Shown here: in pieces, positions 7,882 to 26,925 of the stretch | Layout of the letters: each line of letters opens with the position of its first letter | Position numbering within the stretch: position 1 is the first letter of the stretch | DNA from: Escherichia phage vB_EcoM_JNE01 | Strand: one strand, 5' to 3' | Length of the DNA stretch: 64,000 bases | Sequence record: OR670491 | Notes under the pieces: generated by a model | Told to the model about the DNA's origin: nothing | The model's input: only the letters and a program-made list of their open reading frames with translations | Databases searched by the model: none | Position numbers and translations under genes: made by a program

Positions 7882-8613
7882 ATGGATCTACGCAATGTAC
7901 TACGTGACCTCGTAAACACTACTAGCGGCATCGACTTTACCTGTATCGCAATGAGTAGTGAAGACCGTGGTGATGGACAGCGTGTTTACATGGAATCATA
8001 CACTGAAGACCGTACCTTAGTTATGCGTGCATACACTAAAGAGAATGCTCCTGAAGTTCAAGGTCGTTTTGGTCTTGGTAACTTAGGTCTTCTACAGGGT
8101 CTAATGTCTCTAAAAACTTACAGTACTGAAAGCACCACTATCACACCTAATGTTAAAGACGGCGTTATCAAAAGTCTTGTATTTAAGTCTGATGATGCAA
8201 ACACTACCTTTATGGTACAAGCTGAAAAACTAATCCCAGCCCAGCCACGTTTCCATGAACAACCATATGACGTACAGGTTACACCTAGTGCAGCAAAGGT
8301 TCAGGAACTAAAAAGCTTCTCTGGTGTGTTTAAATCTTTCAGTTCACTAGTTACTCCTTACACTGAAGGTGATACACTTTACTTCCACGTTGGTGAGAAA
8401 AACAAAAGCAACCACGTTGGTGCTCTAGCATTCTCTAAAACTGACGGTGAGCTTGGTCTAGGGTTTGGTTATAGTATTGACCGTGTTCTACAAGCACTAG
8501 CCCGTGTTGCTAACTCCGAATCTGTATCTCTTGGTATTACCAAAACTGGTATGCTAAATGTACAAATTGACACTGGTATCGCAGTGTACAAATTCTACGT
8601 AAATGGTTGCTAA
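7882..8613 (+). CDS. 45: putative sliding clamp (T4 gp45-like)
   Basis: 243 aa from the ATG at 7882 (GGAG RBS); FGLGNLGLLQGLMSL and AKVQELKSFS regions align by eye with T4/RB69 gp45 (DLNGFLGILSL, EDLQQLLRVS). Confidence 0.5.
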   Translation: MDLRNVLRDLVNTTSGIDFTCIAMSSEDRGDGQRVYMESYTEDRTLVMRAYTKENAPEVQGRFGLGNLGLLQGLMSLKTYSTESTTITPNVKDGVIKSLVFKSDDANTTFMVQAEKLIPAQPRFHEQPYDVQVTPSAAKVQELKSFSGVFKSFSSLVTPYTEGDTLYFHVGEKNKSNHVGALAFSKTDGELGLGFGYSIDRVLQALARVANSESVSLGITKTGMLNVQIDTGIAVYKFYVNGC

Positions 8614-8621
8614 TATAAATA
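8614..8621 (+). promoter_or_regulatory. T4-type late promoter TATAAATA
   Basis: Exact TATAAATA match upstream of 8677. Confidence 0.5.
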
Positions 8622-8623
8622 AC

Positions 8624-8652
8624 GGGGAACATGGAGTTCCCCATAATTTTTT
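8624..8652 (+). terminator. rho-independent terminator (GGGGAAC...GTTCCCC family)
   Basis: GGGGAAC / GTTCCCC stem followed by a T-run; near-identical hairpins at 19030 and 60820. Confidence 0.65.
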
Positions 8653-8676
8653 GAATAATAAGTAAAGGAAGACAAA

Positions 8677-8883
8677 ATGCCACTATATACATATCGTTGT
8701 GAAAAAGAAGAATGCAAACATAGCATGGAAAAAATTGTGAAAATTGCCAATCGTGAGACACCGCATGATTGTCCAAAATGTAGTGGTGAACAAACAATGA
8801 AACTTGAAGTCTTTACACCAGGTGATAAAGGTGCTAACTTATATTTCCGTGGTAAATGGTTTGCAAACACTGGAGGTTACTGA
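8677..8883 (+). CDS. FmdB-family zinc-ribbon protein
   Basis: MPLYTYRCEKEEC...CPKCSG matches the MPxYxYRC...CPxCG zinc-ribbon pattern. Confidence 0.6.
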   Translation: MPLYTYRCEKEECKHSMEKIVKIANRETPHDCPKCSGEQTMKLEVFTPGDKGANLYFRGKWFANTGGY

Positions 8884-8884
8884 T

Positions 8885-9184
8885 ATGAAAATTAAAATGC
8901 AGAATGATTATGTACTGGTTCGTCAGATTGAAGCACAGAACAAAAGTAATGGCGGTATTATCCTCGGTAACGTTGAACCACCTTGTGTTGGTATGGTAAT
9001 CTCCGTTGGGCCAGGTAAAGTACTACCAAATGGTCAAATTGCAGAACACAACATTAACGTTGGTGACATGATTGTTTTTGGTCGTTCATCTCTAAATACT
9101 CCGATCACCGAAGATTTAGGTGGTGGTGAAGATACGTATTACGTAATGAAAATTGAAGAGATTTTTGGTAAGAAACATGGCTAA
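8885..9184 (+). CDS. GroES/Cpn10-type co-chaperonin
   Basis: YVLVRQ...NGGIILGN...GMVISVGPGKVL...VGDMIVFG...YYVMKIEEIFG follows the Cpn10 fold pattern; GGAGG RBS; start overlaps the upstream stop. Confidence 0.7.
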   Translation: MKIKMQNDYVLVRQIEAQNKSNGGIILGNVEPPCVGMVISVGPGKVLPNGQIAEHNINVGDMIVFGRSSLNTPITEDLGGGEDTYYVMKIEEIFGKKHG

Positions 9185-9902
9185 AAAAAGATACTTGCCT
9201 TTCTGTCTAGTCCCTGCTCATTGGGGACTTTCAGGGAAAGCAAAAGAGATTGCAAAAGCATACTATTACAACGATGATTATGAAGCAGATATTATAGTTG
9301 CAGAACTTACATATCTTACTCCATATGAAGTTGAAAAGGCTCAATTAGATATCAAGAAGAAGTATGGAGTTATCTCCGATGAACTTGAGTATCTAATTGC
9401 ACTTGCTGATTTAGATTTAAAATACTCAAAGATTACTCGTGATGAATATAATGTAAAGATACTTGATGCAAAATTAAGTACTGAAGCAATCACTAAACAA
9501 GAGTATGATCTTGAGATTATAGAACTAATGCCCGATAGTGATGATAAGTTATTAAAAACTATTGAGTACGCATATAGTTATGGTGAAATTACTCAACAAG
9601 AGTATTCTAAGGAAATCTTTACTTTACGTAAAGAACCTTGGATTGATTTGGATGTAATTCTAAACGATTCAAATGAAGTAGAATTTATATTTGATTATAA
9701 TGAATACTTCGTTAAGAAACTAAAAGATGAAGGTCATCCAGGAAATGATGAAGAAGAACTAATTGATAACTTCATTCGTGACTTGGGTCGCAAATTAGCA
9801 ACTGACGAGTTTAGTGATAACTATGACGTAAAGCTAGTAGCCGAGAACGAGGGGATCGAGAACCTACCTGGTTTACCTGACGGCTTTAAAAGATACAAAT
9901 AA
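9177..9902 (+). CDS. hypothetical protein with ITxxEY repeats
   Basis: ORF from the ATG at 9177; three ITRDEY / ITKQEY / ITQQEY repeats. Confidence 0.5.
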   Translation: MAKKRYLPFCLVPAHWGLSGKAKEIAKAYYYNDDYEADIIVAELTYLTPYEVEKAQLDIKKKYGVISDELEYLIALADLDLKYSKITRDEYNVKILDAKLSTEAITKQEYDLEIIELMPDSDDKLLKTIEYAYSYGEITQQEYSKEIFTLRKEPWIDLDVILNDSNEVEFIFDYNEYFVKKLKDEGHPGNDEEELIDNFIRDLGRKLATDEFSDNYDVKLVAENEGIENLPGLPDGFKRYK

Positions 9903-11465: not shown

Positions 11466-17683
<6,218 letters not shown>

Positions 17684-17687
17684 GTAG

Positions 17688-17723
17688 TTTGTCGGAGGAA
17701 TAAAAACCCTCCGACAAATTTTC
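17688..17723 (+). terminator. stem-loop / terminator-like hairpin
   Basis: TTTGTCGGAGG / CCTCCGACAAA 11-bp stem followed by TTTTCG. Confidence 0.5.
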
Positions 17724-17735
17724 GAAAAAATATTT

Positions 17736-17764
17736 TGGAACGCTTTAAAAACCAATGATATAAT
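17736..17764 (+). promoter_or_regulatory. early-type promoter P2 (extended -10 TGATATAAT)
   Basis: TGATATAAT at 17756..17764, with downstream GAAGTTTGT shared with P1 and P3. Confidence 0.55.
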
Positions 17765-17809
17765 GAAGTTTGTAAGACGATACATGGTGTTGAATCTTAC
17801 GAAAAAAAT

Positions 17810-17839
17810 CCTGAACGAATCAAGTTCAGGTGATATAAT
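17810..17839 (+). promoter_or_regulatory. hairpin plus early-type promoter P3 (extended -10 TGATATAAT)
   Basis: CCTGAAC / GTTCAGG hairpin immediately followed by TGATATAAT at 17831..17839. Confidence 0.55.
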
Positions 17840-17936: not shown

Positions 17937-19004
17937 ATGCAAACTCTAGCTGAAATTCGTGCAAAACTAAAAGCGGAACAAGAAAAAGCAGAAGCTCAAA
18001 AGAATGGTACTTTTACTGGTGAACGTAAAGCCGATTCTTTCCTAGCTTTCTGGAACGTTCCTTATAACGAACCACTAAACCTACGTTTTCTTCCAGATGC
18101 AGATGAAAGCAACCCTTTCTTCTGGCGTGAACGTGATATGATTAACCTGACTTTCCAAGGTGTAGTAGGTCTTCACACTGATAAAGTTACCGTACAAGTA
18201 CCTTGTAACGAAATGTGGGTTCCTAAATCATGTCCAGTACTGAAAGAAGTTCGTCAATGGTTCCAAAGTGCGAATGAATCTGGTGATGAAGAACTGAAAG
18301 CTATGGCTGGTCGTTACTGGAAAAAGAAAACCTATCTAATGCAATGTTTCATCGCTCCTGATAGTGTTGCAGTAAAAGATGACATGGCTCCAGAAAACCC
18401 AATTCGTCGTATTCTAGCTAACAAAGATATTTTCGATAAAGTAAAATCTATTCTACTGAATCCTGGTATCAAAGAACTACCAACTCACTACACTCATGGT
18501 CGTGACTTCGGTATTGTTAAGACTAAGAACGGCGGCGGTTACAACAGCTACGATATGTCTCAATTCTCCATGTCCGAGCGTGAACTAAACGCAGACGAAA
18601 TGGCAGCTATTGAAAAATATGGTCTATACAATCTAAATGATTTTATGCCTAAACAACCAACTCCAGAAGAACTAACAGCAATCGCTGAAATGTTCGAAGC
18701 TTCTGTAAATGGTGAAGCATATGATCCAGCACGTTGGGCTTTCGCATACCGTCCAGCAGGTGTTCAAAAACCTGTAACTGGTGGTTCTGCTCCAGCAGCA
18801 CAACCTGCTCCACAAGCTCCAGCAACACCACAACCTGCTCCACAGGCAGCGGTACAGGAATCTACTCCTGTTACTCCAACTGCTCCTGTTACCCCAGCAG
18901 CACAACCTGCTCCAACTGCTCCAGCATCAACTGGTACTGAAGCACCAAAAGAACAACTATCTGCATCTGCTCTAGTTGCTCGTTTGAAGCAACAAAGCAA
19001 GTAA
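17937..19004 (+). CDS. 32: single-stranded DNA-binding protein (T4 gp32-like) with Pro/Ala/Gln-rich C-terminal tail
   Basis: RFLPDADESNPFF...VQVPCNEMWVPKSCP core resembles gp32; C-terminus is a PAQ-rich low-complexity repeat. Confidence 0.8.
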   Translation: MQTLAEIRAKLKAEQEKAEAQKNGTFTGERKADSFLAFWNVPYNEPLNLRFLPDADESNPFFWRERDMINLTFQGVVGLHTDKVTVQVPCNEMWVPKSCPVLKEVRQWFQSANESGDEELKAMAGRYWKKKTYLMQCFIAPDSVAVKDDMAPENPIRRILANKDIFDKVKSILLNPGIKELPTHYTHGRDFGIVKTKNGGGYNSYDMSQFSMSERELNADEMAAIEKYGLYNLNDFMPKQPTPEELTAIAEMFEASVNGEAYDPARWAFAYRPAGVQKPVTGGSAPAAQPAPQAPATPQPAPQAAVQESTPVTPTAPVTPAAQPAPTAPASTGTEAPKEQLSASALVARLKQQSK

Positions 19005-19079: not shown

Positions 19080-20192
19080 ATGAAAATGACAAGTGGTTTT
19101 GCAAACATTCTAAAAAATAGTACTGGCAGCGTTAAGAAAAATACTGGTGTTAGCGTAGGTTTTCATGATCCTGATACTTGGATTAGTACTGGTAACTTTG
19201 CTTTGAACTACCGTATTAGTGGTTACTTTGACCGTGGTATTCCACTTGGTAAAGTAACAATGTTTGCTGGTGAATCCGGTTCTGGTAAATCCTTTATCGT
19301 GTCTGGTAACATTGCACGTGAAGCACAACAGCAAGGAATCTTTGTTGTGATGATTGACTCCGAGAACGCATTGGATTCAGATTGGTTGCAAGCTCTAGGT
19401 GTGGATACATCTGAAGAGAAACTACTTAAAGTTAACATGGGTATGATTGGTGACGTAGCTAAATTTACTTATGAGTTCATCGAAGGTTATCGTAAAGAAT
19501 ACGAAAACACCCCGAAAGAAGAACGTCAGAAAGTACTATTCATCATCGACTCAATTGGTATGCTTAATACTGAAGTTGCTAATGACCAGATGAAAGCTGG
19601 TAACCTAAAAGGTGACATGGGTCATAAACCTAAGCAACTTAAAGCGTACATTACTAACTGTGTAAACTCCATTGGTTCTTTGAACATTGGTATGGTTTGT
19701 GTAAACCACAGTTATGAATCTCAAGACATGTTCAACCCTGATCCTAAAGTATCTGGTGGTAGCGGTCTGATTTATGCATCATCTATGGTGATTGCAATGG
19801 GTAAACTAAAACTTAAAGAAGATGAAGATGGTAATAAAACATCTGATGTAAGTGGTATCCGTTCAAAATGTAAAGTGATGAAAACTCGTTACAACAAACC
19901 ATTTGAAGATGTAGAGATTAAAATTCCTTGGGATAAAGGTATGGACCCACGCAGTGGCCTACTTGATATGTTCGAGAAATATGAACTAATCACCAAATCT
20001 GGTAACCGTCTAATGTATGTTGACATTGATACTGGTGAACAAATTCTGAAATATCGTAAAGAATGGATGCGTAATGAAGATTCTTGCTTAGACTTAGTAA
20101 TGAATCAATTCAAACGTCACCCAATGATTGAAGATGTTAAAGAAGAAGAGAAAGGTGATGAATCATTTGGTACTGACATTAGTGAGGAATAA
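19080..20192 (+). CDS. uvsX: UvsX RecA-like recombinase
   Basis: Walker A GESGSGKS; GLLDM and surrounding region align with T4 UvsX. Confidence 0.9.
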   Translation: MKMTSGFANILKNSTGSVKKNTGVSVGFHDPDTWISTGNFALNYRISGYFDRGIPLGKVTMFAGESGSGKSFIVSGNIAREAQQQGIFVVMIDSENALDSDWLQALGVDTSEEKLLKVNMGMIGDVAKFTYEFIEGYRKEYENTPKEERQKVLFIIDSIGMLNTEVANDQMKAGNLKGDMGHKPKQLKAYITNCVNSIGSLNIGMVCVNHSYESQDMFNPDPKVSGGSGLIYASSMVIAMGKLKLKEDEDGNKTSDVSGIRSKCKVMKTRYNKPFEDVEIKIPWDKGMDPRSGLLDMFEKYELITKSGNRLMYVDIDTGEQILKYRKEWMRNEDSCLDLVMNQFKRHPMIEDVKEEEKGDESFGTDISEE

Positions 20193-20653
20193 TGAAACCT
20201 TGGCATTGGATTATCAAAGATGACAAATCTAAACTTCTTGAAATGATTGAATTTTTCGATAAAGAAATCGAAGAAGCACGTAAAGAAGTTAAAAAGATAG
20301 GTATCATTGAAAAGATTGCTCAAGAGATTCCAGGCTGGCATGAGACACGTCTTAGCCAGCTTCAAGAACTCGAAGCAGTACTTGAGATGTTAGAAATAGA
20401 AATGCGTCAGCTTCAAGGTGAGAAGTTCCAGTACTACCTAGAAGCGTACCGTCGTGCGTTATCATCGTCTGACTGTAAAAAGTATGTAGAAGGTGATAAA
20501 GAGGTATGTGAATTATATGAACTTATTAATGAAGTATCATATATTCGAAATACATTTACAAGCATTGTTAAATCCTTAGAGATGAAAGCTTTTCAGTTAA
20601 ACAATATTGTAAGACTACGTGCTGCTGGTATTGAAGATGCTCGTTTAGAATAA
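20192..20653 (+). CDS. putative UvsY-like recombination mediator
   Basis: Immediately downstream of uvsX with ATGA overlap; C-terminal RLRAAGIE resembles the UvsY RAFEAGK end; weak. Confidence 0.35.
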   Translation: MKPWHWIIKDDKSKLLEMIEFFDKEIEEARKEVKKIGIIEKIAQEIPGWHETRLSQLQELEAVLEMLEIEMRQLQGEKFQYYLEAYRRALSSSDCKKYVEGDKEVCELYELINEVSYIRNTFTSIVKSLEMKAFQLNNIVRLRAAGIEDARLE

Positions 20654-20700: not shown

Positions 20701-21519
20701 ATGTCAAATAAATTAGATTTCGTTAAAAAGATTTCAGTACTGGATACTGAAACCACTGGTGTTGAAAGTGATGATGATATTATTGAATTTAGTATTTCAT
20801 TTCCATGTAAAGTAACAGAAGATATTGATGGAATTGATAACTACACTTTACGTTACAAACCATTAAAAGATATTCCACCTGAAGCATCGGCAGTGCACTT
20901 TATCAGTACTGAAGATGTAGCAAACTGCCTGAACTACAGCGATGATTTGGAGAATATTGATGCTCTAATGGGTTGTCGTGATTATTTCGTTGGTCATAAT
21001 GTTCAGTTTGACCGTCGAATGATGGTAGATAACGAATATAAATATCGTAACTCTGTATCACAGTATCTATTGGATGAAGAACGTTGGATTTGTACTCTAC
21101 GTTTTGCCAAGAAGATGTTTGCAGAAGATGTTGAATTCAAGAACTTGACACTGAGTTATTTGTGGTATAAATTTGGATGTTACCGTGAAGTACATCGTCA
21201 TGTAAATGCTCACGCAGCAAAAGATGATGTATTCATGTGTTATCAAGTACTAATGAAGTTGATTGATATTGCCATTGAGCGTGGACACATTGACGAGTCC
21301 GGTGATATTGGAGCACAAATCGTAGACTTCTGTAACAAACCTATGCTTTATTCTTGTATGCCATTTGGTAAACACAAAGGTATGAAGATGAGTGAAGTAC
21401 CACTTAACTACATTGAGTGGATGATTACGAATAGTGATATTCTGGATACAAGTAATCCAAACTGTGATAAAGATTTAGTATATACATTCGAGTACGAGTA
21501 TAGTAGTCGTACTAACTAA
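20701..21519 (+). CDS. DnaQ-like 3'-5' exonuclease (DEDDh) with C-terminal DUF3820-like module
   Basis: Exo I LDTETTG; Exo II HNVQFD; Exo III HAAKDD; C-terminal FGKHKGMKMSEVPLNYIEWMI motif. Confidence 0.75.
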   Translation: MSNKLDFVKKISVLDTETTGVESDDDIIEFSISFPCKVTEDIDGIDNYTLRYKPLKDIPPEASAVHFISTEDVANCLNYSDDLENIDALMGCRDYFVGHNVQFDRRMMVDNEYKYRNSVSQYLLDEERWICTLRFAKKMFAEDVEFKNLTLSYLWYKFGCYREVHRHVNAHAAKDDVFMCYQVLMKLIDIAIERGHIDESGDIGAQIVDFCNKPMLYSCMPFGKHKGMKMSEVPLNYIEWMITNSDILDTSNPNCDKDLVYTFEYEYSSRTN

Positions 21520-21536: not shown

Positions 21537-23021
21537 ATGAAAACTTGTAAACTAACCTTACTGGACGAGGTTAACTGTAAATTTGAGGGTCTTGAACCCT
21601 CTATTCGTCAAAAGATGATTCGTGCAACTGAATATGTTTTACCATATGCAAAGTTCACACCAGCAGGTCGTATTGGTCGTTGGGATGGTAAAGTTCAGTT
21701 CATGAATCTTGGTGGCTCAACTTATTATCATATGTTGGATAAGTTGCTTCCTATTCTTGATGAAGCGAAAATTGATATTGAATTAGAAGATCACCGAGTA
21801 AATTATGGTTTCGATTTCGAACCAATTGATGAGAATATCTTTGCTGATGTAGTCTTTGGTGCAGGACACCACATGGAAGGTAAATCAATTAAACTCCGTG
21901 AGCATCAGGTAGAAGCTGTAAACGCGTGTCTGGCTAATCAACATGGTTTACTATTGGCAGCAACAGGTGCAGGTAAAACACTCATCACAGCAGCATTATC
22001 CAAGAAGGTAGAGCAGTATGGTCGCTCTGTTATCATCGTTCCTAGTACTGATTTAGTACAACAAACGTATGATGACTATGTGATGTGTGGTTTAGACACT
22101 GGTATGTTCTATGGTGCACAGAAAGACTTTGGTCATCAGCATACAATCACCACATGGCAATCCTTCAATTCTTTGTGGAAGAAAACAAAGAAAGGTGAAA
22201 TTGAACTAACTGAACAAGACGTTCATGACTTTATTGACGGTGTTGTTTGTGTTATAGTTGATGAGTGTCAAGGTGCTGGTGGTGATGCACTTGTACAAGT
22301 ACTATCTAAAGTAATGAACAACGTCCCGCTTCGTTGGGGTTTGACTGGTACTATTCCTAAAGATAAAGTGGTAGCAGCAAAGATTCGTTGTAACATTGGC
22401 GATGTGATATTCAAAATCACTGCTAAAGAATTACAAGATAAACAAATTCTAAGTACATGTAACGTGAACTGTATTAAACTTAAAAGTAATATGAAATTTG
22501 CATCATATGCTGAAGAGTTGAAGTACTTAGTTACTGACCGTGACCGAATGGCTTACATTGCGTCATTGATTGGTGCGTTGTCTGAATCGGGAAATACATT
22601 AGTACTGGTGGACCGACTGGAGGCAGGAGAACTTCTATGTGAGTATCTCGGTATTCCTAAGTCCGAATTTGTTCGTGGTGAAACTAAGAAGAAAGACCGT
22701 GAATCATCTTATGGTGAGATCCGTTGGGCTGATAACAAAATCTTGATTGCAACCTACGGTGTTGCGAGTACTGGTATCAGTATTTCACGTTTATACAATG
22801 TTGTTCTTCTTGAGCCAGGCAAAAGCTTTGTGCGTACAATTCAGTCCATTGGTCGTGGATTGCGTCGTGCCGAAGACAAAGACCACGTTGAAATCTATGA
22901 TATCAGTGGTTCAAACAAATACAGTGCAAAACACTTACGCGAGCGTATTGCATTCTATAAAGAAGCACAGTATCCACACAGTATCATTGATGTAAAAGAT
23001 TGGGAAAACACAGCGGGATAA
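21537..23021 (+). CDS. uvsW: UvsW SF2 DNA helicase
   Basis: Walker A LAATGAGKT; DExH box IVDECQ; overall layout matches T4 UvsW (502 aa). Confidence 0.9.
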   Translation: MKTCKLTLLDEVNCKFEGLEPSIRQKMIRATEYVLPYAKFTPAGRIGRWDGKVQFMNLGGSTYYHMLDKLLPILDEAKIDIELEDHRVNYGFDFEPIDENIFADVVFGAGHHMEGKSIKLREHQVEAVNACLANQHGLLLAATGAGKTLITAALSKKVEQYGRSVIIVPSTDLVQQTYDDYVMCGLDTGMFYGAQKDFGHQHTITTWQSFNSLWKKTKKGEIELTEQDVHDFIDGVVCVIVDECQGAGGDALVQVLSKVMNNVPLRWGLTGTIPKDKVVAAKIRCNIGDVIFKITAKELQDKQILSTCNVNCIKLKSNMKFASYAEELKYLVTDRDRMAYIASLIGALSESGNTLVLVDRLEAGELLCEYLGIPKSEFVRGETKKKDRESSYGEIRWADNKILIATYGVASTGISISRLYNVVLLEPGKSFVRTIQSIGRGLRRAEDKDHVEIYDISGSNKYSAKHLRERIAFYKEAQYPHSIIDVKDWENTAG

Positions 23022-23042
23022 CCCCGCTGTTCGTGATATAAT
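23010..23042 (+). promoter_or_regulatory. hairpin plus early-type promoter (TGATATAAT at 23034..23042)
   Basis: CAGCGGG / CCCGCTG hairpin overlapping the uvsW stop, then CGTGATATAAT. Confidence 0.55.
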
Positions 23043-23093
23043 GGGTTGTATGTGAATACAACGACAAAAATAATACAAGGAAGTATAATAAAA

Positions 23094-23534
23094 ATGGAAC
23101 TAAGATCTAGTATTGCATTTATCTGTGACCAAGAAACATTGGATATTATTGATGTGTTTTTGAATGATGATGGTATTATGGATGACATGGTATCTTCACT
23201 TGATTACATTGCCGAATTAGAAACTGATGATACTAATGTATGGCGTTGTAATATTGATAGTGATTCATGGATTAATATCTATGAACTTCAAACACGCATT
23301 GATGATAAGAAAATAGATAAAAAACTAACATATGATATTATCTATGCAAGTACTGATTCTAAAACATTCATTGATGTGGTTAGTCTAAGTGGTAATTTTG
23401 ATTCATATCTAGACACTGACGTTGATAAGATTCAAGAACTATGTGAAACCTACGGTCTTGAGTTCTATGGAACTAATGATGAAGATGATGATATTGATGA
23501 TGAAGATTACAACAACGAAGAATCATATTACTAA
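23094..23534 (+). CDS. highly acidic early protein (candidate DNA mimic)
   Basis: 146 aa from the ATG at 23094 (AAGGAAG RBS); Asp/Glu-rich throughout; C-terminus NDEDDDIDDEDYNNEESYY; first gene after an early promoter. Confidence 0.5.
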   Translation: MELRSSIAFICDQETLDIIDVFLNDDGIMDDMVSSLDYIAELETDDTNVWRCNIDSDSWINIYELQTRIDDKKIDKKLTYDIIYASTDSKTFIDVVSLSGNFDSYLDTDVDKIQELCETYGLEFYGTNDEDDDIDDEDYNNEESYY

Positions 23535-23546
23535 AGGTGAAAAACA

Positions 23547-24044
23547 ATGAATGTATTAACCCCTGAAAACATCACATTTGACATGGACTTAGTTACTGAA
23601 CACATCCCTGAAGAGATGTATTGTGTTCTAGACTTAAGCCCAACTGGTGAATCCGATTTCTACTTCAGACATATTCTAAACACTGTATCCTTTAACAGTA
23701 TTAGTGCTGACCTTCAAATCGGTGAAAAGATCATTCAAGTCCCACTTGGATGGCAAATTATGCTTGGTGATGAAGAGACTGGTATGGTTGAGATGTGCAC
23801 TATCGAAAACATCTTGAATATGAAAGAACCAAAAGCTTTTGTTTACAATCCAATCCGTTCAATGTATCCTAAGTTTGAACCAGTAAAAGTACTGCGAGTA
23901 TTCGCATTAACTACTAAGTGGCAAATCCCAATGCTACCGAAGAAAAACTTATTGTGTGTTCCATTGGCAAATGGTGACAATCCACCATGTGTGTACTTTG
24001 CCGATGAGAATGAGAAAATCCAAGATCTGTACTTAGGAGTATAA
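23547..24044 (+). CDS. hypothetical protein
   Basis: ORF in the early-gene block. Confidence 0.5.
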   Translation: MNVLTPENITFDMDLVTEHIPEEMYCVLDLSPTGESDFYFRHILNTVSFNSISADLQIGEKIIQVPLGWQIMLGDEETGMVEMCTIENILNMKEPKAFVYNPIRSMYPKFEPVKVLRVFALTTKWQIPMLPKKNLLCVPLANGDNPPCVYFADENEKIQDLYLGV

Positions 24045-25583: not shown

Positions 25584-25909
25584 ATAATAAAAGTATATAC
25601 AATAAAATACCTGAAGGGTATGTGCCAACCCCAAAGGTTGACAAGAGTAGAGAGATTAGTTTATTAAGGCAGGGTTCTATTACTGAGATTACACTTGATG
25701 GGTCAACCTTTCAAGTATCTGATCCAGTACGAATTGAAAAGATAATTAAACTTGTTGAAAGACACGATGAACGATTGTATAATATGAATCAGGAATTATT
25801 ACAATACAAGCGTGCTTGTGCACAGTTGGAACAGAAAGTCAACAAACTTTCCATAACTGTGAATAAATTACAGGAGCAGATTAAGAATGCAGGACTCGAC
25901 AGGTTCTAA
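25580..25909 (+). CDS. hypothetical coiled-coil protein
   Basis: ATGA start overlap; heptad-like C-terminus. Confidence 0.45.
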   Translation: MNNKSIYNKIPEGYVPTPKVDKSREISLLRQGSITEITLDGSTFQVSDPVRIEKIIKLVERHDERLYNMNQELLQYKRACAQLEQKVNKLSITVNKLQEQIKNAGLDRF

Positions 25910-26525
25910 TCATTACAGAAAAGCAAGGACTGATATTGACATTGACTTCAAAGATAGTAAGTCAGTGATTGCAATGTTACCTTGCATTAGAAGTACTGAA
26001 AAAATTACCGAAGATGGATTGATTGCACACAATAGTGGTGTTCATTTTGATAACATCCCAGTTGACCCAATCTCCGGTCTAGCAAGCATTCAATACAAAG
26101 AAGCCGAAAGATTGGGATACCAAAAGGTTGATATCCTGTCACAATCGGCTTATATGTACGTGCGTGACAGAAAACATCTAAAGGAACTTATGAATCGTGA
26201 ACCAGATTGGAGTCACTTATTAGTACCGGAAATTGTTGACAATCTATCACAAATTAAAAAACACATAACGTTACTTAACGTTTGGAAACCGCAAACTATC
26301 GACCAACTAGCTATGTTTATCGCTATGATTCGACCGGGTAAACGCGAATGCCAAAGTATGAACACATGGTCTGAAGTTGAGGCTGTTATTTGGGATTACA
26401 GCACTATCGGTACAGATCAGAGTGGGAACAAGCTACGTTACTTCAAAAAGCCACATGCTTATGCATATAGCTTAATGATTGTCGTGCAACTTAATGCACT
26501 GGTTGAACATCTTACTTCTTCTTAA
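25887..26525 (+). CDS. hypothetical protein
   Basis: ORF; no motif recognised with confidence. Confidence 0.5.
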   Translation: MQDSTGSNHYRKARTDIDIDFKDSKSVIAMLPCIRSTEKITEDGLIAHNSGVHFDNIPVDPISGLASIQYKEAERLGYQKVDILSQSAYMYVRDRKHLKELMNREPDWSHLLVPEIVDNLSQIKKHITLLNVWKPQTIDQLAMFIAMIRPGKRECQSMNTWSEVEAVIWDYSTIGTDQSGNKLRYFKKPHAYAYSLMIVVQLNALVEHLTSS

Positions 26526-26925
26526 GTGCCACGTTGCGACGTTTAATACGCTTCTGTGGCAAATCACTTAAAGACACAGTTGGGCCACATACGAAATTCA
26601 CCGCTGGGGTATCGAATCTCTGTGTGTAAGGCTCAAATTTTTCCATTTCTTCTTGAAAAAATAAACATACTGGGATGTTTCTGTTGCTTTGCCACCACCA
26701 GTCATGTGCTATGCTAAGTAATTCGTCTTGCATTGGCTCATTCATATCATCAAAGGAGTAAAGAGTAGTGTACTGTTTACTTTTGATTTTGATAATACCA
26801 ATGTAAGTTTTGCCATCACACTGCACAACAGTAATGAATGGTGGAATAGTATTATATTGATTCATATGAGTTCCATAAATATTAGTATAAATGTTATACC
26901 TATTATTTATGGAAGGAAAAATCAT
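26512..26925 (-). CDS. hypothetical protein, isolated minus-strand gene (true start may be the internal Met at 26865)
   Basis: Only minus-strand ORF in the 23-36 kb block; basic C-terminal tail KRIKRRNVALKKK; convergent overlap with 25887..26525. Confidence 0.4.
   Translation of the reverse strand: MIFPSINNRYNIYTNIYGTHMNQYNTIPPFITVVQCDGKTYIGIIKIKSKQYTTLYSFDDMNEPMQDELLSIAHDWWWQSNRNIPVCLFFQEEMEKFEPYTQRFDTPAVNFVCGPTVSLSDLPQKRIKRRNVALKKK

Follow-up and report, generated by a model that had tools for sequence, protein, structure and literature searches.

Acidic protein tails with a hydrophobic tip are carried by Escherichia coli single-stranded DNA-binding protein (SSB; tip DDDIPF), by T7 gp2.5 and gp4, whose tails end in Phe, and by T4 gp32 in its A-domain. 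These tails dock on the basic DNA-binding surfaces of their partners and compete there with DNA. Small acidic proteins that inhibit RecBCD are encoded among recombination and replication genes as well: lambda gam is part of the red recombination operon, and T7 gene 5.9 is flanked by the genes for the polymerase and the exonuclease. T7 Ocr (gp0.3), an all-helical dimer that mimics bent B-DNA, is an immediate-early product of the genome end that enters first, and ArdA is an elongated protein of three domains. In T4, the gene directly downstream of uvsW encodes UvsW.1, a small trihelical protein proposed as a partner of UvsW (PMC7824862). Here we analyzed a stretch of 64,000 nucleotides from Escherichia phage vB_EcoM_JNE01 (sequence record OR670491), hereafter the window, and a gene within it that encodes a strongly acidic protein of 146 amino acids. 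This acidic gene behaves as a member of the core replication/recombination module of its phages, not as a mobile counter-defence gene, and its conserved product is, on the reading that we favour, a probably non-enzymatic accessory protein of the phage replication/recombination machinery. The gene and its parts are as follows.

23094-23534, plus strand: open reading frame (ORF) of the acidic gene, with the ATG at 23094 and the stop codon at 23532-23534, 146 amino acids
23077-23083, plus strand: ribosome-binding site AAGGAAG, 10 nt 5' of the ATG, by direct reading of the sequence
23094-23471, plus strand: predicted ferredoxin-like acidic globular domain, residues 1-126, net charge -21
23472-23534, plus strand: predicted disordered acidic tail, residues 127-146 and the stop codon, net charge -11, with a Tyr-Tyr end

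The conserved N-terminus MELRSSIAF in 28 homologues supports the ATG at 23094 as the start. At the C-terminus, the ORF listing and direct reading of the sequence agree on NDEDDDIDDEDYNNEESYY, and the initial annotation, which had described a protein of about 146 amino acids dominated by Asp and Glu with this ending, was right in both respects. The protein contains 29 Asp and 12 Glu, compared with 6 Lys and 3 Arg, which gives 28% Asp/Glu and a net charge of -32. Its isoelectric point (pI) is approximately 3.4 by our own calculation; Biopython returned 4.05, which is the lower bound of its routine, and this value was therefore replaced. With a charge of -0.22 per residue, compared with -0.105 in the runner-up, the protein is the most acidic among the 75 ORFs of at least 100 amino acids in the window. 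The acidity is thus borne out by pI and charge, and it is kept in 27 relatives, in which the core carries a net charge of -14 to -24 and the tail one of -4 to -16. Because the charge is maintained in relatives down to 21-22% identity, it does not reflect a chance composition.

No named relative of the acidic protein was found in Pfam, NCBIfam or PDB by phmmer and hmmsearch with a profile of 27 sequences, and the sole match in PHROGs is its own family, PHROG 16541, which has no assigned function. A hidden Markov model (HMM) search of 1.84 billion representative proteins returned 23 matches, two of which are spurious repeat proteins. The search added approximately 20 further clusters, which are 21-42% identical to the window protein and, apart from one fragment of 52 amino acids, comprise 128-156 amino acids with the same acidic-tail architecture. 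None of the matches in this set fuses the acidic protein with another domain. Literature searches on DUF1281/Api92/YubB and on DNA mimics in jumbo phages turned up nothing about the acidic family.

The AlphaFold2 model, built on an alignment of 29 sequences, has a mean predicted local distance difference test score (pLDDT) of 78.9 and a predicted template modelling score (pTM) of 0.72. Residues 1-125 form a folded domain in the order beta-alpha-beta-beta-alpha-beta-beta-beta-alpha, and the core as modeled belongs to the ferredoxin-like alpha/beta fold class. Residues 128-146 are predicted to be disordered, with a pLDDT below 50. A fold search of BFVD retrieved, besides the acidic family itself, a weak match to a protein that contains a YubB ferredoxin-like domain. 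The ferredoxin-like domain of Api92/YubB (Pfam DUF1281; PDB 2ijr) shares 6% identity with the acidic protein, no member of the acidic family matches the Pfam model, and DUF1281 has no known function; this match therefore carries no functional information.

Two features of the protein are maintained among its relatives. Positions D81, D94 and D103 of the core hold an acidic residue throughout the aligned sequences, D88 and S97 hardly vary, and all five positions map to the beta4-beta5 hairpin and the loop after it. The tail, on the other hand, is constant in composition and variable in sequence. The last 20 residues of 83 relatives consist of 57% Asp/Glu (36% Asp and 21% Glu), 18% Tyr, 20% aromatic residues in all and less than 0.3% Lys/Arg. 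The C-terminal residue is Phe, Trp or Tyr in 65 of the 83 (78%), and an aromatic residue occurs within the last three positions in 80 (96%) and within the last five in 82.

A 1.2-kb query around the acidic gene is 99.3% identical to Escherichia phage Turkey5 (351 kb) and approximately 81% identical to 121Q, PBECO4 and other Asteriusvirus phages, with lower identity to RaK2-like phages of Klebsiella, Salmonella, Erwinia, Yersinia, Cronobacter and Xanthomonas. Judged by these nucleotide identities, the window is part of a RaK2/121Q-like jumbo myovirus. The annotated genes of Turkey5, RaK2, CBB and 121Q leading up to the acidic gene follow the order terminase, virion protein, gp32-like SSB, RecA/UvsX, UvsY, Pol III epsilon-type exonuclease and UvsW-like helicase. 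Downstream of the acidic gene, the same four phages carry five small genes without annotation, a single gene on the minus strand, and genes for a virion-associated protein, a primase and a DnaB-like helicase. The module assignments are supported by Pfam, with RNase_T for the exonuclease, ResIII, DEAD and Helicase_C for the helicase and gp32 for the SSB. Genes of this module upstream of the acidic gene are located in the window as follows.

21537-23021, plus strand: UvsW-like superfamily 2 helicase of 494 amino acids (Pfam ResIII 5.5e-17, DEAD, Helicase_C), directly upstream of the acidic gene
17937-19004, plus strand: gp32-like SSB (Pfam gp32), a gene separate from that of the acidic protein
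19080-20192: UvsX
20192-20653: UvsY
20701-21519: exonuclease

The window helicase is 25-31% identical to UvsW of T4-like phages and cyanophages over more than 90% of its length, and its counterparts in RaK2 and 121Q carry the annotation uvsW. We compared the surroundings of the acidic gene in 12 contexts, which include Vibrio phage 2.275.O and the DNA around six members of the further clusters, with relatives at 22-27% identity from marine and other metagenomes among them. In 12 of 12, wherever the contig is long enough, the acidic gene is preceded by RecA/UvsX, UvsY, an RNase T-type exonuclease and the UvsW-like helicase. Where the contig extends far enough on the other side, a gene for a 165-amino-acid protein lies 3' of the acidic gene. 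The short contig L018 shows just a 58-amino-acid ORF fragment at the contig end, to which no domain is assigned, and the 165-amino-acid gene. An ORF of approximately 495 amino acids, which occupies the helicase position, shares its last 4 nt with the acidic ORF in L002 and its last 13 nt in L003, whereas the overlap in L018, again of 4 nt, is with the upstream 58-amino-acid fragment; in these three contigs, the overlap leaves no room for a promoter between the acidic gene and the upstream ORF. In another distant metagenomic relative, L004, an inserted GIY-YIG/NUMOD3 homing endonuclease gene at 8501-9205 separates the acidic gene, which is not displaced, from the 165-amino-acid Hint-fold gene.

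Among records of isolated phages, 72 contain a helicase at least 60% identical to that of the window and 72 contain the acidic protein, in a single copy each; the two lists were matched by count only. Compared with RaK2 and CBB, the acidic protein is 56-61% identical, the exonuclease 50-60%, the neighbours of 281 and 236 amino acids 51-56%, and the helicase 77-79%. On these identities, the divergence rate of the acidic gene appears ordinary for the module and faster than that of the helicase gene.

The acidic protein resembles SSB-type tails in its disordered Asp/Glu C-terminus with a terminal aromatic residue and in the placement of its gene in a replication module, a likeness that rests on established knowledge of those tails. 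SSB proteins possess a DNA-binding core with an oligonucleotide/oligosaccharide-binding (OB) fold, whereas the core of the acidic protein is ferredoxin-like and carries a net charge of -21. With such an acidic body and no OB fold, the acidic protein is not itself an SSB. Its gene shares with that of T4 UvsW.1 the slot directly after the UvsW-type helicase gene. However, UvsW.1 is a helical, near-neutral protein of approximately 75 amino acids, whereas the acidic protein has 146 amino acids, an alpha/beta fold, a net charge of -32 and a tail. We detected no sequence similarity between the two, and a PDB profile search, in a library taken to include T4 UvsW.1, gave no match to the acidic family.

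The fixed slot after the helicase gene, the overlap of the two ORFs in two distant relatives, the folded hyperacidic body and the acidic/aromatic tail lead us to favour, tentatively and at somewhat less than even odds, the reading that the acidic protein is a non-enzymatic nucleic-acid mimic or adaptor, which acts on replication/recombination proteins through its SSB-like acidic/aromatic tail. In such a mechanism, the ferredoxin-like acidic domain would carry a flexible Asp/Glu/Tyr tail with an aromatic end, and the protein would sit on the DNA-binding surface of a module protein or bridge it. Occupation of this surface may in turn control the loading of the partner on DNA or its release from DNA. 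The UvsW-like helicase, whose gene is proposed to be co-transcribed with the acidic gene, would be the first candidate partner, and translational coupling is suggested by the two distant relatives in which these genes overlap. We infer both the partner and mimicry as such from this combination of gene order, charge and tail.

Several observations weigh against the mimic or adaptor reading. Overlapping ORFs are frequent in phage operons regardless of gene function. The protein that T4-like phages encode in the analogous position offers no homology precedent: UvsW.1 of phage JC221 is helical, comprises 75 amino acids and has a net charge of -2, and as it is not acidic we rejected UvsW.1 as a charge analogue. 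The conserved D81, D88, D94, S97 and D103 could mark a metal or ligand site instead of a mimic surface. Meanwhile, PA5oct retains the module, with a helicase 47% identical to that of the window, but has a non-acidic ORF of 83 amino acids in the slot of the acidic gene, so that the function of the acidic protein is dispensable or replaceable for such a replisome in the PA5oct lineage. We also considered this 83-amino-acid ORF, gp268, as a truncated homologue of the acidic protein, which was unsupported (hhalign probability 0.6%, E 0.097).

The initial annotation had proposed an Ocr/ArdA-like DNA mimic or another early host-takeover or anti-defense protein. As an early anti-restriction protein directed against type I restriction-modification, bacteriophage exclusion (BREX) or similar systems, the acidic protein would share with Ocr and ArdA a small size and a very low pI, its acidity is comparable to theirs, and in the enterobacterial members a sigma70-type extended -10 box lies directly upstream of the gene. 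The searches revealed no relationship, either in sequence or in fold, to Ocr, ArdA or other DNA mimics of solved structure, and neither the acidic protein nor its 27 relatives match ArdA in Pfam, even at E values up to 1. The single ferredoxin-like domain with a tail differs from the all-helical Ocr and from the three domains of ArdA, and whereas Ocr is encoded at the genome end, the acidic gene lies inside the replication/recombination module and not in an immediate-early or leading region. Its position was thus not the one expected of Ocr or ArdA, since it is a fixed, single-copy gene of that module in all 12 contexts. This is the least supported of the readings and we regard it as very improbable; what survives of the proposal is the extreme acidity, conserved over deep divergence, which keeps a mimic or decoy mode of action plausible.

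A DNA mimic could also be directed at a host DNA-processing enzyme that endangers phage DNA during replication or recombination, with RecBCD as the most obvious target and with the acidic domain and tail plugging the DNA-binding channel. The extreme negative charge conserved in both core and tail agrees with this, as do the small size and the compact alpha/beta fold, which are typical of many mimics. Lambda Gam and T7 gp5.9 are likewise small, acidic and encoded among recombination or replication genes, so the location of the acidic gene is compatible with such a role, and its lack in PA5oct fits a host-directed accessory function. However, the acidic protein resembles neither Gam and gp5.9 nor another solved inhibitor in sequence or fold. 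Counter-defence genes are usually patchy and mobile, whereas the acidic gene is fixed beside the UvsW-like helicase gene in the contexts examined, occurs as a single copy in every clade member examined across enterobacterial, Vibrio, Xanthomonas and metagenomic hosts, and diverges at a rate ordinary for its module. We consider inhibition of a RecBCD-type enzyme rather unlikely on this balance; taken together with a restriction system as the target, inhibition of a host DNA enzyme is nevertheless the main rival of the mimic or adaptor reading. The invariant Asp/Ser cluster of the core raises a further alternative: on its ferredoxin-like (palm/ACT-like) scaffold, this cluster would bind Mg2+, a nucleotide or a polyamine, the protein would function as a small enzyme or as a regulator that binds a ligand or metal, and the acidity would be secondary; we hold this to be improbable.

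The gp32-like SSB offers a more specific version of the adaptor idea. In the phages that carry the acidic protein, this SSB has a long, near-uncharged linker of Pro, Ala, Gln and Thr (net charge 0 to -2) and ends in a conserved basic tip, DL[LIV]A[KRQ][LI][KRQ], in place of an acidic tail such as that of T4 gp32. As the linker is near-uncharged and the C-terminal tip is basic, the usual acidic hub tail is missing from the SSB of this clade. The acidic protein was not detected in two relatives, PA5oct and Atu_ph07, and there the SSB linkers are acidic, with net charges of -6 and -5 and 20-21% Asp/Glu; that of PA5oct contains EDDNDDLPWED. This comparison covers seven phages versus two, which are not phylogenetically independent. 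A co-occurrence of the basic SSB tip with the acidic protein was considered and rejected, since PA5oct and Atu_ph07 have the tip as well. It is conceivable, though we think it a long shot, that the acidic hub tail, which gp32-type and bacterial SSBs usually carry in cis, has moved to the separate 146-amino-acid protein, which would provide it in trans and either recruit the UvsW-like helicase and other partners or release them. The acidic linkers of PA5oct and Atu_ph07 agree with this idea and are the one comparative hint for it. The N-terminus of the SSB, LAEIRAKLKA, resembles its own basic C-terminal tip.

Upstream of the acidic gene, two elements were identified from the end of the helicase gene to the ribosome-binding site.

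23034-23042, plus strand: extended -10 promoter-like box TGATATAAT, upstream of the acidic gene, one of 14 matches in the window
23010-23030, plus strand: hairpin of 8 bp rich in G+C (predicted RNA fold -15.6 kcal/mol, z -2.65), with the stop codon of the helicase gene in its loop

The pattern TGNTATAAT has 14 matches in the window, all on the plus strand, whereas 5.9 +/- 2.4 are expected and none of 100 shuffles reaches 14. Reading of the sequence contexts shows that approximately 10 of the 14 boxes directly precede genes and have a -35 element of the GAGACA/GGAACA type 16-17 nt upstream. At the acidic gene, the hairpin sits at the -35 position in place of such an element. The box is kept in 121Q, CBB and RaK2; the hairpin is present in 121Q and is not conserved in CBB and RaK2. 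We do not call this hairpin a terminator because no T-run follows it. Elsewhere in the window, at 17675-17839 on the plus strand, three tandem TGATATAAT boxes with a spacing of approximately 80 nt, each with a -35-like GAACA, are located directly before the SSB gene.

The promoter that the initial annotation placed upstream of the acidic gene is therefore present as a promoter-like box, and the attribute early found no support. In CBB, the predicted early region comprises ORFs 390-546, with RpoD-like promoters and UP elements, and a class of 'divergent RpoD-like' promoters marks the DNA-synthesis region, which holds the orthologue of the acidic gene (PMC5259590). In PA5oct, the sole relative for which RNA-seq exists, the terminal repeat is the source of early transcripts, and genes of DNA metabolism and replication are expressed at middle and late time points (PMC7318152). 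We found no transcriptome of an Asteriusvirus or Alcyoneusvirus in the literature. As the early regions of CBB and PA5oct lie elsewhere, the label early is unsupported for the acidic gene, and a delayed-early or middle expression class, as for the replication genes of T4, is more likely.

Three neighbours downstream of the acidic gene were characterized further.

23547-24044, plus strand: free-standing protein of 165 amino acids with a Hint (intein/hedgehog) fold, lacking the splicing residues, probably co-transcribed with the acidic gene
25887-26525, plus strand: protein of 212 amino acids, annotated 'Pol III alpha' in Turkey5 (Pfam DNA_pol3_finger weak in four of seven orthologues, best E 8.6e-4)
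26512-26925, minus strand: lone minus-strand gene, whose product has 117 amino acids in Turkey5 (PHROG 11637, no known function)

The phage depends on a family-B polymerase, and the 212-amino-acid protein seems to be a Pol III alpha finger-like protein that stands on its own. Its gene is overlapped at the 3' end by the minus-strand gene, which is kept at the same place in RaK2, CBB, 121Q, PA5oct, Vibrio phage 2.275.O and metagenomic relatives. PDB profile searches for the neighbours of 165, 281 and 212 amino acids gave nothing significant. The annotation of the 281-amino-acid neighbour in Turkey5 as 'sliding-clamp-loader small subunit' was not confirmed by PHROGs or by the PDB profile search. 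The region from 23.0 to 27.9 kb had been viewed as a block of uncharacterised early ORFs that includes a lone minus-strand gene. We find that gene, and unannotated ORFs from 23.5 to 27.9 kb, in a setting that is a conserved replisome-linked set and not a host-takeover block.

Two observations concern other genes of the region. The large terminase ORF (13670-16330, plus strand, 886 amino acids) contains a LAGLIDADG intein inserted before the Terminase_6N region, as indicated by Pfam matches to LAGLIDADG_3 (1.4e-10) and Hom_end (6e-5) and a weak match to Intein_splicing; in 121Q and CBB, the terminase is annotated as two ORFs. In 121Q, CBB and PA5oct, module proteins are annotated as virion-associated by mass spectrometry, among them the gp32-like SSB (121Q and PA5oct), the UvsX-like recombinase (PA5oct) and proteins of 109 and 336 amino acids, which points to packaging of DNA-metabolism proteins by these jumbo phages. 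The acidic protein carries no such annotation in these three phages.

RaK2/121Q-like jumbo phages are candidate therapeutics against E. coli, Klebsiella and Salmonella, and their replisome is poorly defined; in CBB, homologues of just five of the eight T4 replisome proteins were reported (PMC5259590). The acidic protein is an uncharacterised, conserved member of their module with an unusual design, in which a hyperacidic folded domain is joined to an SSB-like tail. The Hint-fold and Pol III alpha finger-like neighbours suggest that the entire block merits biochemical attention. Should the acidic protein turn out to block a host nuclease, it would represent a DNA mimic of a new fold that is encoded in a core module and not in an accessory region. 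As a regulator of the UvsW-type helicase or of the SSB, it would represent a new type of replisome accessory factor.

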